Of a stretch of 64,000 nt of DNA, positions 2,583-53,751 are shown piece by piece. Both the position numbers and the translations under genes were made by a program. The first letter of the stretch is position 1; every line of letters starts with the position of its first letter. The notes under the pieces were generated by a model. The model made no database searches and was not told the DNA's origin. It saw only the letters and a program-made list of their open reading frames with translations. The stretch lies in the NCBI GenBank assembly GCA_944412525.1, contig CALYBM010000077.1, positions 27,044-91,043 of the forward strand, in the 5' to 3' direction. The DNA comes from an uncultured Ruminococcus sp. (GTDB taxonomy: Bacteria; Bacillota; Clostridia; Oscillospirales; Acutalibacteraceae).

Positions 2583-2900
2583 ATGAGCAATTTATCAAAC
2601 ACATACGGTTTTAAATGTCCGAAATGTGGCTGCGAAAAACTTGAGTTTTCTGAAGTAACTGACATAAACGGTAAAAAATATTATTCATTGATATGTTCTG
2701 CTTGCGGAAATGAAGATGGAATAAATTCTGATGTTTTAAATTTAACCTTTCGTGTGATATCAAGATACTACTTATTAAACTATAGCAGAGTTATTTATCT
2801 TTCAAAACACTCAAAAAAATCAAGAGTAAGGAAAAAGAATTTTAACAGAATAAAACAAAAAATGATAAAAGATGTAATAAATTCATTTAAGGAGAATTAA
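2583..2900 (+). CDS. Zinc-ribbon hypothetical protein
   Basis: CPKCG...CSACG. Confidence 0.55.
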   Translation: MSNLSNTYGFKCPKCGCEKLEFSEVTDINGKKYYSLICSACGNEDGINSDVLNLTFRVISRYYLLNYSRVIYLSKHSKKSRVRKKNFNRIKQKMIKDVINSFKEN

Positions 2901-2902
2901 AT

Positions 2903-3052
2903 ATGGCACACTTTGAGGCTTTTGCTTTGATTTTTGTGATTTGTGCAGTGATTGAAGCTTTGGTAGTCGGAGGTTTCTTCGGCATCCTGAAATTATTAAA
3001 AATCATTAAAAAACACAGGTTAAAACGCCGTGCCGTTTTACATAAAAGATAG
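2903..3052 (+). CDS. Small membrane protein (49 aa), not in the ORF track
   Basis: AAGGAG RBS; MAHFEAFALIFVICAVIEALVVGGFFGILKLLKIIKKHRLKRRAVLHKR has one TM helix and a basic tail. Confidence 0.55.
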   Translation: MAHFEAFALIFVICAVIEALVVGGFFGILKLLKIIKKHRLKRRAVLHKR

Positions 3053-3077
3053 AACTTAATAAATATCGTGCAATTCA

Positions 3078-3107
3078 AGGCATAGACGAGCACGGTCGTC
3101 TATGCCT
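3078..3107. other. Perfect 12-bp inverted repeat (hairpin) without U tract
   Basis: AGGCATAGACGA-gcacgg-TCGTCTATGCCT. Confidence 0.8.
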
Positions 3108-3333
3108 ATAAACATAAGTATTTTAATTTCAATAAATATAAAAATCTCAAAAATATTTGCGGCGACCTGCCGCTTTAGGCCTTGTAATCCGTATTATTTT
3201 TATATCCATTTATAAAATAATAAAATATTTAAAATTGGGTGTGAAAACAAGAAAGAGGAAAAAAAGGGGTGAAAGGGGAAAAAAGGGAGAAAAGCCTTTC
3301 TCTCTTTTTTCCCCTCAGAAAGGCAGTAGTTTT

Positions 3334-49791: not shown

Positions 49792-50034
49792 TTGAGTGAA
49801 CAAATGATTTTGGCGTTGCTGTCGTTTGCGGGAACCTTGCTTGGCTCTCTTGCAGGCGTGTGCGCGACTTCAAGACTTACAAACTACAGAATTGAACAGC
49901 TTGAAAAAAAGGTTGACAAGCACAACAATCTTGTAGAGCGTGTATATCGAATCGAACAGCACGAAGCGGTTATCGACAATAAACTGAAAACAGCCGATCA
50001 CCGCATTAAAGATCTCGAAAAAGAACAAATTTAA
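49792..50034 (+). CDS. Phage-type lysis-associated single-TM/coiled-coil protein
   Basis: MSEQMILALLSFAGTLLGS..LTNYRIEQLEKKVDKHNNLVER; RBS GGAGGTGA. Confidence 0.75.
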   Translation: MSEQMILALLSFAGTLLGSLAGVCATSRLTNYRIEQLEKKVDKHNNLVERVYRIEQHEAVIDNKLKTADHRIKDLEKEQI

Positions 50035-50092
50035 AGCAGTGCCATATTATGTTAGTGAGCACTGCCTAATAACGAAAGGATGCTTAAATTTT

Positions 50093-50329
50093 ATGAAAAT
50101 TTTAAATGTTACCTTTACAAAGGAATGTTTGTACCGTGCTTTGCGAACATTTTTGCAGACGGCAATAGGCTATATAATAGCTAATATATCTCTCTACGCA
50201 ACAGGCATTGATTTTGCCGACGGCGATGTCGTAAAAAATGCCCTGATAGGTTTGGCAGTTTCTGCATTTTCAGCAGGCTCGGCAGCAGTAATGAATATAA
50301 AAAAAGGAGACGACAAAAAAGATGGCTAA
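50093..50329 (+). CDS. Holin, homologue of prophage 22564-22770
   Basis: FTKECLYRALRTFLQTAIGY...NALIGLAVSAFSAGSAAVMNI. Confidence 0.78.
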   Translation: MKILNVTFTKECLYRALRTFLQTAIGYIIANISLYATGIDFADGDVVKNALIGLAVSAFSAGSAAVMNIKKGDDKKDG

Positions 50330-51110
50330 AAAAATATATCTAAGCCCCTCAACACAGAGCGGCAACACCTACGCCTCAGGCAATACCAATGAAATGGCAC
50401 AGTGCGAAAAAATCGCAGACGCCGCCGCTTCGGCACTCAAACGATGCGGATTCGAGGTTAAGGTCGGCAAGTCGGGCGATTCAATGCTTAATCGCTGTAA
50501 TGAATCAGACGCTTTTAAAGCGGATATTCATATGCCCATTCACACCAACGCCTACAACGGCAAGGTGACAGGCGGAACAAGAATTTTTTGTTACAGCTCG
50601 TCAGCAGCCAATACAGCACCCGCAAATGCCGTTTTAAAAACTCTCGGTGCAATATCACCTGGAACGGCTGACAGCGTATCCGTAAACGCAGGATTGTATG
50701 AGGTAAACAAGCCTAAAGCAATTACCGTATATGTAGAGTGCGAATTCCACGATACAAAGACAGGTGCAGATTGGATTATCAAAAATGTTAAAAACATCGG
50801 CGAAGCAATCTGCAAAGGACTTTGCAATCACTTTAAAGTTAAATATGTGTCAGGCACATCACCCAACACCTCGGCAGGTTCTTCTACGACAACCTCTTCG
50901 GCTTTCAAAAGCTATATAGTTAGAATCACCCCCTCAGACGGAGTGAATATCCGAAAAGGTCCGGGTACTGACTATGATATAGTCGGTGCAATAGAAAAAG
51001 GCGGTGCTTATACTATCGTTGAAGAAAAAGACGGCAAAGGTGCTTCAAAGTGGGGCAAGCTGAAAAGCGGTGCAGGCTGGATCGCTCTTGACTATACCGA
51101 AAAAATCTGA
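50322..51110 (+). CDS. Amidase_3 peptidoglycan hydrolase with C-terminal SH3b
   Basis: MAKKIYLSPS, HMPIHTNA, VYVECEFHD; VNIRKGPGTDY...WGKLKSGAGWIALDY. Confidence 0.9.
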   Translation: MAKKIYLSPSTQSGNTYASGNTNEMAQCEKIADAAASALKRCGFEVKVGKSGDSMLNRCNESDAFKADIHMPIHTNAYNGKVTGGTRIFCYSSSAANTAPANAVLKTLGAISPGTADSVSVNAGLYEVNKPKAITVYVECEFHDTKTGADWIIKNVKNIGEAICKGLCNHFKVKYVSGTSPNTSAGSSTTTSSAFKSYIVRITPSDGVNIRKGPGTDYDIVGAIEKGGAYTIVEEKDGKGASKWGKLKSGAGWIALDYTEKI

Positions 51111-51128
51111 CTTATGATTAAAAAATAA

Positions 51129-51166
51129 TGAGTTTGCCCCGATTTTTAACTTGAGGGGCAAACTCA
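51129..51166. terminator. Hairpin terminator after the amidase (probably bidirectional)
   Basis: TGAGTTTGCCCC/GGGGCAAACTCA preceded by an A tract. Confidence 0.75.
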
Positions 51167-51238
51167 CCTTTAATTTATTAATAAAAAATAAAACAGGCAA
51201 TAATTTTACGCAAAATAAAACGCAAAATCATTACCCAA

Positions 51239-51264
51239 TTTCGTGAAATAAGTTATTTTTAGAA
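51239..51264 (+). repeat. IR-L: left 26-bp inverted repeat flanking the recombinase
   Basis: TTTCGTGAAATAAGTTATTTTTAGAA; 25/26 identical to the reverse complement of 52618-52643. Confidence 0.9.
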
Positions 51265-51292
51265 CAAGTAAGTTTTGTTAAACTTCGATATT

Positions 51293-51321
51293 ATAATACC
51301 AAATATGCCAATATGTGTCAA
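51293..51321 (-). promoter_or_regulatory. Outward-facing sigmaA promoter inside the IR-bounded segment
   Basis: Minus-strand TTGACA(51321-51316)-N17-TATTAT(51298-51293). Confidence 0.6.
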
Positions 51322-51451
51322 TATGTTTTTTAAAATTTTTTTAATTTTTTTTAAAATATAATTTAAATTCTTATATATTTGTTATTTTTAAGTCTTTAAC
51401 TGGTCATTTCTATGGTCTTTTCAGGACATAAAAATATGGGTCGGTGGTCAA

Positions 51452-52546
51452 ATGAGAACAAAACAGAATATTTATAAAAGAAAAGACGGAAGATGGGAGG
51501 GGAGGTACTTTAAAGAATATGACAGTAACGGAAAAATAAAATATTCTTCAGTTTATGCTAAATCATACACAGAAGTAAAAGAAAAGCTTAACAGTATAAA
51601 AGCCAACTCATTAAATATATCCACAAATGGTATTAAAACTGATTTTAAAGATGTGTGCAAAGAGTGGCTCGAATATAAAAAAAGTTCAATAAAAATATCT
51701 TCATATGCAAAATATAATTTTATTATTGAAAAGTACATTATCCCGTTTTTTAATAATTGCAAACTGTATGAGTTAAATAAAAATTCCTTAAACGAATTAA
51801 TAATAAAAAATAATAACCTTGCACAAAGCACCCAAAAAAATATTGCAACTGTATTTAAATCTATCATTTTGTTTGTAAATGACAAATACAACTTAAATTT
51901 AGAAATAACATCTTGTCAATTTAAAAAAGCTTATGCCGAAAATATGAAAGTATTGTCGGAATTTGAACAAGAAAAATTGGTAAGATATTTATTAAATAAT
52001 ATTAATTTGATAAATTTAGGTGTTTTAGTTTGTTTATTTACCGGATTACGAATAGGAGAAATTTGTGCTTTAAAATGGTCTGACATAGATTTAAAAAACA
52101 AAATCATTAAAGTATCTAAAACTATACAAAGAGTGCAGATAGTTGACGAGTATCATAATTCAAAAACAACAATTATTTCGCAATCTCCGAAATCAAACAA
52201 CTCAATAAGAGAAATACCGATGACAGATGATTTGATATCAATCATAAACAAAAATGTAAAGAATTTCAATAGCAACACATATTTCCTTACAGGAAATAAA
52301 CATTACATTGAACCCAGAAATCTTCAAAATAAATTTAAAAAAATTCTTGCCAATGCAAAAATAAATGATATAAATTTTCATGCTTTAAGGCATACATTCG
52401 CAACGAGAGCTATTGAAAACGGTATTGATGTAAAAAGCGTTAGTGAAATTCTCGGACATTCTAATGTAAGTATGACACTTCAAAAATATGTACACATATC
52501 TATGCAACAAAAATTAAAAGAGATTAACAAATTAAAGTTATTTTAA
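51452..52546 (+). CDS. Tyrosine recombinase (intact) with an N-terminal arm-binding-like domain
   Basis: NIYKRKDGRWEGRY; GLRIGE, FHALRH, LGHS, LQKYVH catalytic residues R-H-R-H-Y. Confidence 0.93.
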   Translation: MRTKQNIYKRKDGRWEGRYFKEYDSNGKIKYSSVYAKSYTEVKEKLNSIKANSLNISTNGIKTDFKDVCKEWLEYKKSSIKISSYAKYNFIIEKYIIPFFNNCKLYELNKNSLNELIIKNNNLAQSTQKNIATVFKSIILFVNDKYNLNLEITSCQFKKAYAENMKVLSEFEQEKLVRYLLNNINLINLGVLVCLFTGLRIGEICALKWSDIDLKNKIIKVSKTIQRVQIVDEYHNSKTTIISQSPKSNNSIREIPMTDDLISIINKNVKNFNSNTYFLTGNKHYIEPRNLQNKFKKILANAKINDINFHALRHTFATRAIENGIDVKSVSEILGHSNVSMTLQKYVHISMQQKLKEINKLKLF

Positions 52547-52617
52547 ATGTGTACTTGGTCAAAAAAATCGTAAAACAGAAGAAAAACTCGCATAAAATGC
52601 GAGTTTTTGTTTTGTTT

Positions 52618-52643
52618 TTCTAAAAGTAACTTATTTCACGAAA
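52618..52643 (-). repeat. IR-R: right 26-bp inverted repeat
   Basis: TTCTAAAAGTAACTTATTTCACGAAA, directly after the recombinase terminator AAAAACTCGCAT/ATGCGAGTTTTT. Confidence 0.9.
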
Positions 52644-52740
52644 ATAAAATTTTAAATTTAAGTTATTCAATAATGCTGTTTTAAGATATTGTATCCGAAT
52701 TCCCTTAATAATATTTAATTTGAGAAGCTCTATGGTGATG

Positions 52741-52762
52741 AAGTTATGTTAACAAATAACTT
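52741..52762. repeat. Palindromic AAGTTAT-N8-ATAACTT site
   Basis: AAGTTAT GTTAACAA ATAACTT: 7-bp arms with an 8-bp spacer, sharing the AAGTTAT core of IR-L. Confidence 0.65.
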
Positions 52763-52834
52763 TCGGTACAAAAGGTTTTCTTAAAACGGATAATGCAGTA
52801 AATTTAAAATAACAAACCAATAAATTTATTTTTC

Positions 52835-52867
52835 AGTTATTTTTAGTTAAAGTAGTTTTGTTAAACT
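52835..52867 (+). repeat. Site D: direct partial copy of IR-L and its inner flank
   Basis: AGTTATTTTTAG-N7-AGTTTTGTTAAACT versus AGTTATTTTTAG-N8-AGTTTTGTTAAACT at 51251-51284. Confidence 0.8.
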
Positions 52868-53005
52868 GAGGCGATAATGTGGAGAATCATTTGCACTAAA
52901 ATTCAACATATCTAAAATACAATATCACCACAATCTATACTACAATTAATCATTAATTTTGATACCACTGAAAATGCAGATAATTCGTCACAGATTTTGC
53001 TTACG

Positions 53006-53040
53006 GAAAACCAACGGAAACTTATCCGTTGGTTTTTTCG
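53006..53040. terminator. Bidirectional terminator at the 3' end of tcdA
   Basis: GAAAACCAACGGA/TCCGTTGGTTTTTT. Confidence 0.8.
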
Positions 53041-53052
53041 TTTTGTGACAAA

Positions 53053-53751
53053 TTAAATGTTACATATGTCCTTTATTACTTCTCCTGCAATAATAAGTCC
53101 CATAACCGACGGTACAAACGCAAGACTTCCCACAGTTTTTTCGCCCTCTATTTTGTAGGGCGGATTTTTCGGCGGTTCTTTCGAGTAAACCACCTTTAGC
53201 TTTTCGACACCCGCTTTTTTAAGCTCACGTCTCATTATTCGGGCAAGGGGACAAACGCTTGTTTTGTAGATGTCGCAAACTTCAAATTTTGTAGGATCGG
53301 TTTTGTTACCTGCTCCCATAGCCGAAATTATCGGTATATTGTTTTCCTTTGCGATTTTTGTAAGCAAAATTTTTGCTTTAATATCGTCAACAGCGTCAAT
53401 AATATAATCGTACGCGGTAAAATCGTGTTTATTTGCCGTTTCGGAATTTATAAAAATATTAAAAGCCGTCACCCGTGCGTTGGGATTTATATCAAGTATT
53501 CTGTTTTTCATAACATCGGCTTTAAATTTTCCTACGGTTGATTCAAGTGCTATAATCTGTCTGTTTATATTAGACTTTGCAACCGTGTCGCCGTCAAACA
53601 GTGTGAGCCCGCCTGCTCCGCTTCTTGCCAGAGCCTCGCACACATATCCTCCTACTCCTCCCACTCCCGCAACGGCAAAATTGCAGGCGGAAAGCTTTTG
53701 GAGGTTTTCTTCGCCGATTACAAGCGATGTTCTTATAAATCTTTCGTCCAT
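53053..53751 (-). CDS. tcdA: ThiF-family tRNA threonylcarbamoyladenosine dehydratase
   Basis: GVGGVGG, DGDTVAKSNINRQ, SAMGAGNK, CPLARIMR, GSLAFVPSVMG; start at MDERF (53751). Confidence 0.88.
   Translation of the reverse strand: MDERFIRTSLVIGEENLQKLSACNFAVAGVGGVGGYVCEALARSGAGGLTLFDGDTVAKSNINRQIIALESTVGKFKADVMKNRILDINPNARVTAFNIFINSETANKHDFTAYDYIIDAVDDIKAKILLTKIAKENNIPIISAMGAGNKTDPTKFEVCDIYKTSVCPLARIMRRELKKAGVEKLKVVYSKEPPKNPPYKIEGEKTVGSLAFVPSVMGLIIAGEVIKDICNI

Follow-up and report, generated by a model that had tools for sequence, protein, structure and literature searches.

In the Salmonella H segment (hin, hixL/hixR and the fljBA promoter), inverted repeats of about 26-29 bp enclose about 1-1.4 kb of DNA with both a recombinase gene and an outward promoter, and the flipping of this DNA connects or disconnects the promoter and the flanking genes. 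In E. coli fimS (FimB/FimE) and the RecV switches of C. difficile, a tyrosine recombinase inverts a promoter element between short inverted repeats. Heterobivalent integrases, those of Tn1549, Tn916 and lambda, integrate or excise mobile elements between directly oriented sites; such enzymes are characterised by an N-terminal domain that binds arm-type sites, which differ from the core sites. In the R64 shufflon with Rci and in SpnD39III hsdS, one tyrosine recombinase acts on at least three sites and several DNA states result. The catalogued invertons were about 230-670 bp long in one survey (PMC11892184).

Here we analysed a locus in a 64,000-nt stretch of Ruminococcus DNA (the window), for which an original prediction had proposed a nested, multi-state switch controlled by one enzyme. 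We consider it fairly probable that we are dealing with a self-contained invertible promoter cassette, which would work like the Hin segment with a tyrosine recombinase of the lambda/Tn1549 type, and that its additional site D does not serve as a further site of crossover.

Inversion of the 1.4-kb segment

The features of the locus are as follows.
51130-51165, no strand assigned: terminator hairpin of the amidase gene with T/A runs on both sides (reading of the sequence; conserved in L022 and L023)
51194-51237, minus strand: terminator-like hairpin just outside IR-L, on the strand transcribed from P_out (terminator scan)
51239-51267, plus strand: IR-L core site, with putative outer half-site TTTCGTGAAA, overlap TAAGTTAT and inner half-site TTTTAGAA
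51268-51286, minus strand: element X, the IR-L inner flank and 5' leader of the predicted P_out transcript, the part that D copies
51293-51321, minus strand: P_out, outward-facing predicted promoter of the sigma-70 type (TTGACA-17-TATTAT with upstream TG, 11/12)
51452-52546, plus strand: tyrosine recombinase of 364 aa (Pfam Phage_integrase, PF00589, 8e-31, and SAM_3)
52582-52608, no strand assigned: bidirectional intrinsic terminator just inside IR-R (terminator scan)
52615-52643, minus strand: IR-R, inverted copy of the core site with overlap AAGTTAC
52644-52834, no strand assigned: non-coding right-flank segment from IR-R to D, unalignable between three lineages
52835-52867, plus strand: site D, a copy of the overlap, the inner half-site and the P_out leader (X') without the outer half-site
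53005-53038, plus strand: intrinsic terminator (terminator scan; conserved in all three lineages)

The original prediction had named IR-L, IR-R, D, a palindrome and several AAGTTAT cores, and all of them are present where it placed them. IR-L and IR-R are complementary at 27/29 nt, which corresponds to 93% over 29 nt. Their outer 17-nt motif TTTCGTGAAATAAGTTA occurs nowhere else in the window or in the entire 1.99-Mb genome. When the 26-nt core sequence was used for scanning, the two IR arms matched at 26/26 and 25/26, and the runner-up (18/26) fell within the shuffles. In the 79% lineage the two arms have changed together, both to TTTCCTAAAATAAGTTA. The half-site plan given for IR-L was inferred from paralogous cassettes, whose layouts are TTTCGTAGAA-TATGCCC-TTCAACGAAA (L011) and TTTTCGTAAAG-TGCCAA-CTTGACGAAAA (L015). 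The C/T mismatch of the inner half-site moves with the segment interior when L029 is compared with L028, which suggests that the crossover takes place in or outside the overlap.

The flip between L and R claimed by the original prediction was found in public assemblies. The segment is inverted in 4 contigs, from two sister lineages, and oriented as in the window in 12, and in these related gut Ruminococcus assemblies it has the same amidase and ThiF flanks in either orientation. The whole segment lies inverted between the amidase and ThiF genes in L102 (26 kb) and L028 (21 kb). Consistently, Logan contigs from two samples (L027 and L031) run from the right end of the interior through the IR into the reverse complement of the left flank. 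This orientation evidence consists of assembled contigs rather than reads, and the samples that gave inverted contigs are not those that gave contigs in the window state. Because the IRs of L023-type and L028-type strains (27-28 nt) are shorter than the assembler k of 31, the junction k-mers must exist in the reads. These results showed that the segment between IR-L and IR-R really inverts, with both orientations at one locus between inverted repeats as in an inverton.

Logan contigs of 1411 nt (L024) were rejected as evidence for heterogeneity, since the IR of that lineage is a perfect repeat of 32 nt and is not shorter than the assembler k of 31. The truncated recombinase of L030 is merely a contig end with a divergent tail. 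No record of the exact window recombinase protein was found, and JGI metagenome scans for D and the core gave 0 matches to further contigs of the exact window lineage.

The recombinase, the promoter and the cassette family

The catalytic residues R200, H310, R313, H336 and Y346 of the recombinase are intact, and these five positions are invariant or nearly invariant columns in an alignment of 28 homologs. The Phage_integrase domain contains the R..H-x-x-R..H/W..Y pattern of the tyrosine recombinase superfamily. The enzyme is thus a tyrosine recombinase and not a serine recombinase of the Hin/Gin/Cin kind, and it scored 36.7 bits with the Fim-type invertase model NF007370 (NCBIfam), below the cut-off of 221. 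In its AlphaFold model (pLDDT 83), residues 6-53 form an N-terminal domain of three strands and a helix. Lambda Int (1Z1B) and Tn1549 Int (6EMZ) gave the best folds, and among solved relatives Tn1549 Int is nearest in both sequence and fold (E 4e-17 and 4e-13). Full-length lambda Int aligns with the recombinase over about 380 columns, and the AP2 sequence match of the N-terminal domain is weak (E 0.029).

P_out, with the consensus TTGACA-17-TGnTATTAT on the minus strand, points out through IR-L and was the top promoter match in 50900-53200. TTGACA and the 17-nt spacer are found at the same place in the window, in 12/13 closer relatives and in 12/29 distant cassettes. We infer that P_out is active as a promoter, and a strong one. 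A hairpin equivalent to that at 52582-52608 is present in all paralogous cassettes, and the Rfam search gave no credible match. The locus is an AT-rich island with 24% GC versus 45%.

Ten closer paralogs follow the same plan, as do 27 of the 29 homologous loci that come from other genera, and cassettes at different genomic positions share a conserved left outer flank (GGCAATAA..TTAC..AAAATyATyACC). These cassettes belong to the window's own family of gut Clostridia (labelled Ruminococcus, Ruminococcaceae or Clostridiales) and to prophage-like contigs; their length of 1.4 kb exceeds that of the invertons surveyed in PMC11892184. The distant ones usually lie beside surface-protein genes, on the side that P_out would face in the ON state, and a gene that P_out could drive is present in all of them (27/27), so the promoter of paralogous cassettes is placed to drive a flanking gene. 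The cargo genes encode a BspA-type LRR surface protein, another LRR surface protein, an S8 subtilase, a lipoprotein and a TetR regulator. Judged from the sequences, this family of a recombinase with a flipping outward promoter is widespread, and no description of it was found in the literature searched.

The window copy carries no cargo gene. No ORF longer than 29 aa lies downstream of P_out in either state, and no flanking gene is there for the promoter to drive. Since the ON side of the window lineage has no ORF, the switch is an orphan, whose cargo gene was lost or never there. No remnant of a cargo pseudogene was detected in 52600-53100 by blastx against the cargo proteins of paralogs (best E 0.4). 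It is also in the window copy that D, a third conserved element and a copy of the promoter leader, shows most clearly.

Site D and the right flank

D is a direct repeat of 51251-51284, as the original prediction had it, with exact matches of AGTTATTTTTAG (12 nt) and GTTTTGTTAAACT (13 nt) and a 1-nt indel between them. The local alignment of D with the inner region of IR-L scored 46, and the shuffle maximum was 34 (0/300). AGTTAYTTTTAG is common to IR-L, IR-R and D, and IR-L can be described as a mosaic, whose outer 29 nt match IR-R and whose inner 34 nt match D. D was rejected as a second copy of the promoter, because its similarity to L ends before the -35 element. A small ORF after D (MWRIICTKIQHI) was also rejected; it is not conserved in L022 or L028.

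A D-like element is kept in both sister lineages, and TTTTGTTAAA(A)C with its complementarity to the leader is kept at equal distance in all three lineages. The calculated duplex between leader and D had -32.4, -21.7 and -16.6 kcal/mol in the three lineages, compared with shuffled means of about -8 to -12, and a shuffled D beat it in 0/500, 0-1/500 and 8/500 trials. Duplexes formed across lineages were as good as those within lineages, so leader and D show no clear covariation; a single double change from A-U to G-C (AAGT/AAGC) was seen in their match. In paralogous cassettes the D equivalent lies 2-70 nt from IR-R. Across the family, 11/37 cassettes had a directly oriented match (p<=0.05) between the IR-L inner flank and the right outer flank, versus 2, 2 and 6/37 in controls, an enrichment that is based on mononucleotide shuffles of AT-rich DNA and includes several low-complexity matches. 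Homology between the right flank of the window and the conserved 85-nt leader of TATGCCC-group cassettes was also considered and was rejected as not significant (96/300).

AAGTTAT is found at 51250, 52535, 52660, 52741 and 52756 (minus strand), the last two copies being parts of the palindrome 52741-52762. The motif is enriched in the AT-rich island (5 observed versus 0.89 expected; 2/500 dinucleotide shuffles), and palindromes with 7-nt arms are unexceptional there (13 versus 7.9; 29/200). The palindrome and the core at 52660 had been proposed as sites; they are not conserved even at 93% recombinase identity. They and the other AAGTTAT copies are specific to the lineage and probably incidental. 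No inversion of a sub-segment of the right flank between lineages was found, and the inverted matches came only from the terminator hairpin.

According to the original prediction, the L end and D would become inverted sites of about 33 bp after the L/R flip and would flip the segment of about 200 bp at 52644-52834, and in the window state L x D recombination would excise the recombinase. The geometry is right: the flip would bring 51251-51284, reverse-complemented, to 52598-52631, inverted to D, around 203 bp. D shares 12 contiguous nt with both cores (6/7 overlap positions and the inner half-site), weak core sites can serve lambda-type integrases if arm sites help, and the AAGTTAT enrichment also speaks for such a switch, as does the hypervariable right flank, which illegitimate recombination could cause. 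However, D has no outer half-site and matches the 26-nt core in register at only 14/26, below the shuffle maximum, and the core scan gives only two sites at 25/26 or better where a third complete site was expected. The alignment of orthologs kept one part of the idea, the D-like element in both sister lineages, and removed the other: these elements in the L022 and L028 lineages lack AGTTAT, the crossover core of D, and the palindrome and the 52660 core are not conserved. Both full-length inverted contigs (L102 and L028) keep the D-side flank in the reference orientation, the amidase gene was directly joined to ThiF in 0/13 contigs (7 around amidase, 6 around ThiF), and no nested or excised junction was seen at the assembly level among 16 related contigs. 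The promoter scan found no strong promoter in 52644-52834, whose size had been likened to that of classical invertible promoters, and the D equivalents of paralogs are too close to IR-R for inversion. The sequence comparisons thus do not support additional recombination sites at D, at the palindrome or at the extra copies of AAGTTAT, and a nested multi-state switch, which would have been an unusual regulatory device, appears very unlikely.

D could instead be a functionless relic: an old rearrangement or the loss of the cargo gene would have left part of the L end in duplicate, and this copy would now be decaying at a different rate in each lineage. The missing cargo gene, the otherwise unalignable right flank and the lack of lineage-specific co-adaptation between leader and D would fit, and so would the DNA-level alignment of D, which is strong in the window alone and not significant in L022 or L028. 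Yet TTTTGTTAAA(A)C and the leader complementarity persist in three lineages despite a flank that has diverged beyond alignment, the SNPs of the L022 lineage fall in a 15-nt insert and not in the leader-matching parts, and unrelated cassettes have similar X/X' pairs, so that we rate a relic as rather improbable. We give still less credit to L and D as attL/attR-like direct repeats of a 1.58-kb mini-element (51251-52834) that carries only an integrase and excises as a circle, which we think highly improbable. Direct repeats of 33 nt do flank an integrase gene in an AT-rich island, and the enzyme is of the Tn1549/lambda integrase type, but the conservation of cassettes across loci reaches beyond IR-L on the left by about 50 nt and beyond IR-R on the right by up to about 85 nt, so the unit does not end at L and D. 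The outer half of L, supposedly chromosomal, has its duplicate in IR-R, which lies within the element. Lineages with recombinase identities of 79-100% have the same locus occupied, and neither an empty site nor a deletion variant was found; other species of the genus do not have ThiF beside the amidase gene and thus provide no informative empty site. The conserved property of D is its match to the 5' leader of the promoter, and an accessory or RNA-pairing role is therefore more probable for D than one as a third site of crossover.

Proposed mechanism and comparison with known systems

In the invertible promoter cassette that we favour, the recombinase would exchange strands within the overlap (T)AAGTTAY of the inverted cores IR-L and IR-R and flip the 1.4-kb segment, together with its own gene, P_out reading through IR-L and the terminator inside IR-R. 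In the OFF state, which is the orientation of the window, P_out would run into hairpins before the convergent amidase gene, with the hairpin at 51130-51165 as the outermost stop. In the inverted ON state, P_out would transcribe from 52644 to 53038, where the terminator 53005-53038 would end the transcript ahead of the convergent ThiF gene. The terminator 52582-52608 would insulate the right flank from recombinase transcription.

D, as a copy of the inner half-site and of the first ~20 nt of the predicted P_out transcript, recurs outside IR-R in part of the family. Its role may be that of an arm-type site for the N-terminal domain of the recombinase or that of an RNA partner of the leader. As RNA partner it would form a long-range helix of 16-33 bp with the leader in ON-state transcripts only. 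As arm-type sites, X and D are predicted candidates, and GTTTTGTTAAAC is a candidate sequence for binding by the N-terminal domain; the OFF state would then have one of X and D at each core, and the ON state both at one core. Tentatively, and with more doubt than confidence, we suggest that inversion toggles an RNA structure instead of a protein gene (the leader-D helix with a loop of ~200 nt in a non-coding RNA of ~450 nt that ends at 53005-53038), or that the arm-type asymmetry of X and D sets the directional bias of the switch. If either is true, the D-like element would be a functional third component of the cassette throughout the family.

Compared with the Salmonella H segment, the window locus is built on a different enzyme: Hin, a serine invertase, depends on Fis and an enhancer, whereas the window enzyme is a tyrosine recombinase with an N-terminal domain of putative arm-binding type, and no gene lies downstream of its promoter in either state. 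The fimS and RecV elements differ in being 150-350 bp long with recombinase genes outside. The integrases of Tn1549, Tn916 and lambda share with it the domain order, including the small N-terminal domain of beta-sheet plus helix seen in lambda Int (1Z1B), but the window locus has inverted sites, and the assemblies show inversion as the product, at a chromosomal position that stays fixed. The R64 shufflon and SpnD39III, which correspond to the model of the original prediction, combine several complete, conserved sites with alternative junctions that have been observed, whereas the window locus has only two complete sites.

Features of the locus and inversion of the segment

The recombinase segment lies in an AT-rich island (51110-53050; ~24% GC versus ~45% in the surroundings), between an XhlA-holin-amidase module 3' of uvrA on one side and a convergent ThiF-family gene, then a fructose operon, on the other. 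The module (49792-51110) is an orphan XhlA-like/holin/Amidase_3-SH3 lysis set that immediately follows uvrA and has no phage structural genes in its vicinity.

Features of the locus (window coordinates)
51239-51267: IR-L, 27/29 complementary to IR-R
51298-51293, minus strand: -10 of the predicted outward promoter P_out, TG-n-TATTAT
51321-51316, minus strand: -35 of P_out, TTGACA, followed by a 17-nt spacer
51452-52546: tyrosine recombinase ORF (364 aa), between IR-L and IR-R
52582-52608: bidirectional terminator just inside IR-R
52615-52643: IR-R, 27/29 complementary to IR-L
52741-52762: palindrome
52835-52867: D, direct repeat of 51251-51284 (exact blocks of 12 and 13 nt, one indel)

Repeat, shuffle and motif analyses showed that the original prediction had described the repeats, the palindrome and the AAGTTAT copies accurately, and had correctly derived the arrangement expected from an L/R flip. 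Within both the 64-kb window and the 1.99-Mb genome, the outer 17-mer of the repeat was confined to the two arms. D aligned to 51251-51284 with a score of 46, against a shuffle maximum of 34 (n=300), and the AAGTTAT heptamer was enriched within the island (5 seen versus 0.89 expected; 2/500).

The best promoter-like site in 50900-53200 was P_out (11/12), located inside the segment and directed outward through IR-L. In the window orientation (OFF), its predicted transcription runs into a hairpin (51237-51194) and then the amidase terminator. In the inverted orientation (ON), it would proceed from 52644 to a plus-strand terminator at 53005-53038.

Inversion was assessed from public assemblies, whose contigs and loci carry L-numbers. 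The segment does invert: both orientations were found. Twelve contigs have the window orientation (the window, L022, L023, L025, L026, L029, L030, L079, L089, L098, L099 and L100; recombinases 79-100% identical) and four the inverted one (L027, L031, L102 and L028). L027 and L031 lead from the right end of the interior across the IR to the reverse-complemented left flank, and L031 extends a further 207 nt into the amidase gene. In L102 (26 kb) and L028 (21 kb) the amidase and ThiF flanks are unchanged and the entire segment between them is inverted. Since the perfect IR of L023-type and L028-type strains (27-28 nt) is shorter than the Logan k of 31, their junction k-mers must occur in reads. 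The 1411-nt IR-to-IR contigs of the L022/L079 type (L024) were rejected as evidence, because the perfect IR of that type is 32 nt. Comparison of L029 with L028 shows a C/T mismatch of the inner half-site moving with the interior, so that the crossover is placed either within the AAGTTAY overlap or outside it.

The 79% lineage carries the identical two substitutions in both arms (TTTCCTAAAATAAGTTA), which shows concerted conservation of the arms. A T/C position at the overlap edge (51257 and 52625) is T/C in the window, T/T in L022 and C/C in L023, as would be expected if sequence were exchanged or converted between arms. Just outside IR-L, ACGCAAAAT occurs twice in direct orientation (51208-51228); its other-strand reading, ATTTTGCGT, resembles the TTTTCGT half-site of the cassette family, and the two copies could be accessory binding sites. 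In L089 (6001-7091; MAG BRZ_PQ bin62, 80% lineage) the recombinase is split by a frameshift into two overlapping frames; the switch may be locked there, or the assembly may be wrong.

The role of D

D, the palindrome and the extra AAGTTAT copies had been proposed as further crossover sites of a nested, multi-state switch. Our results did not support this idea. When a 26-nt core was scanned, the IR arms scored 26 and 25, and no other site exceeded shuffles: the next best (18/26) fell within their distribution (mean maximum 17.2, 95th percentile 19). In register, D matched at 14/26: at 12 consecutive positions across the overlap and inner half-site, and at only 2/12 positions of the outer half-site. 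Neither the palindrome nor the 52660 core is present in the 93% lineage, the AGTTAT overlap of D is not kept in the D-like elements of L022 and L028, and 52644 to ~52990 is unalignable among the three lineages, the terminator excepted. Within a lineage, the right flank is collinear between the window and inverted states (L101 versus L102; L089 versus L028). No cassette-free contig occurred among the 13 that were retrieved around the amidase or ThiF genes, and no strong promoter was found in the ~200-bp segment from IR-R to D. Neither comparison nor assemblies thus support nested states, which at low frequency would be compatible with the assembly-level evidence.

D matches the overlap and the inner half-site, together with the initial ~20 nt of the transcript predicted from P_out, and the likeness stops short of the -35 element. 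Both sister lineages have a D-like element at ~190 nt from IR-R (TATTGTTTAGAATA, a 15-nt insert and TAAGCGGTTTTGTTAAAACT in L022; CAGAAAG..AATTTTGTTAAACC in L028), and SNPs among L022-lineage members fall in the insert, outside the matching parts. RNA duplex energies of D with the leader, the 5' part of the P_out transcript, were -32.4, -21.7 and -16.6 kcal/mol in the three lineages; shuffled D equalled them in 0/500, 0-1/500 and 8/500 trials, so the match was significant in all three. In folded ON-state transcripts, leader-D pairing was obtained for the window and for the actual inverted contig L028, and not for L022. Family-wide, the IR-L inner flank matched the right outer flank in direct orientation (p<=0.05) in 11/37 cassettes, against 2, 2 and 6 in three controls. 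The credible copies (L038, L117, L132, L116, L135, L087) lie 2-70 nt from IR-R, and are therefore too close to serve as inversion partners.

Because of the sister-lineage elements, the duplex significance, the SNP placement and the family-wide flank matches, we read D as an accessory element, which may serve the N-terminal domain of the recombinase as an arm-type site or be an RNA partner of the leader. That D is a relic of an old duplication stays a serious alternative, since cross-lineage D-leader duplexes equal the within-lineage ones.

A family of predicted invertible promoter cassettes

Homologs from the same genus or order (38-65% identity) are flanked by IRs spaced 1244-1435 bp that start TTTCGTGAA/TTTCGTAGA and differ in their overlaps. 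Each carries a perfect TTGACA-17-TAT(T/A)AT promoter motif that points outward across IR-L, as well as a hairpin on the inner side of IR-R. In 300 other genomes of the window's bacterial family, 29 loci were fetched and 27 contained IR pairs (>=17 nt, spacing 1384-1638 bp); in all 27, P_out could drive a gene in one state. Cargo beside closer paralogs comprised a BspA-type leucine-rich repeat (LRR) surface protein, a second LRR surface protein, a 1243-aa S8 subtilase, a lipoprotein, a TetR regulator and a zinc-ribbon membrane protein. Both LRR proteins terminate in IQTG, a hydrophobic stretch and basic residues, possibly a cell-wall anchor.

Adjacency of the XhlA-holin-amidase module and the cassette is kept in two further species (L081, L083; recombinases 62-63% identical), in which the gene after IR-R encodes a secreted protein or lipoprotein. 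Between IR-R and ThiF, no ORF >29 aa was found in the window or either sister lineage. The window copy is an orphan switch, and the three lineages are an exception within the family. Their non-coding flank from IR-R to the ThiF terminator is unalignable (window 52644-52990; L022 5244-5640; L028, reverse complement, 2863-3190) beside genes 80-98% identical, and has either turned over unusually fast or been replaced.

Independent of cargo, sequence conservation reaches ~50 nt beyond IR-L on the left; in one subgroup it also reaches ~85 nt past IR-R on the right. Cassettes with a TATGCCC overlap (L032, L033, L034, L081, L084, L085) share a near-identical first ~85 nt outside IR-R (TTAATGTTTCAAATTTATTATTGCCTATGATAACAGTTTTTGCAGTAGTTGTAAAGACTATTCGC...) before different genes, so the portable unit exceeds IR to IR. 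Recombinase relatives are encoded by 545 viral stretches in total (IMG/VR), and the predicted viral or prophage contigs L137, L140, L142 and L147 combine homologs with flanking IRs and an outward TTGACA promoter. The rabbit-gut Clostridia MAG Lapin-014 bin39 holds at least 7 copies or fragments of the recombinase family (L087, L088, L090, L092-L095), many at contig ends, as expected if assembly breaks at multi-copy invertible cassettes.

Comparison with known invertible systems

The recombinase contains R200, H310-x-x-R313, H336 and Y346. Its nearest solved relatives, in sequence and fold alike, are Tn1549 Int and lambda Int, and in its model (pLDDT 83) the N-terminal domain has three strands and a helix, like that of arm-binding integrases. 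The curated NCBIfam models, that for Fim-type invertases included, all stayed below their cut-offs, and the enzyme is not of the Fim type. Our literature search found no description of a cassette with a lambda/Tn1549-type recombinase and an outward promoter inside the segment. A survey of invertons reported elements of a few hundred bp, with invertases mostly nearby and external (PMC11892184). The Salmonella Hin segment, cited in a paper on genome-wide inversions as an example of a recombinase within its own segment (PMC5903667), is similar in function, with recombinase and outward promoter inside invertible DNA. In contrast to the Hin-like serine invertases, the window enzyme is a lambda/Tn1549-type tyrosine integrase.
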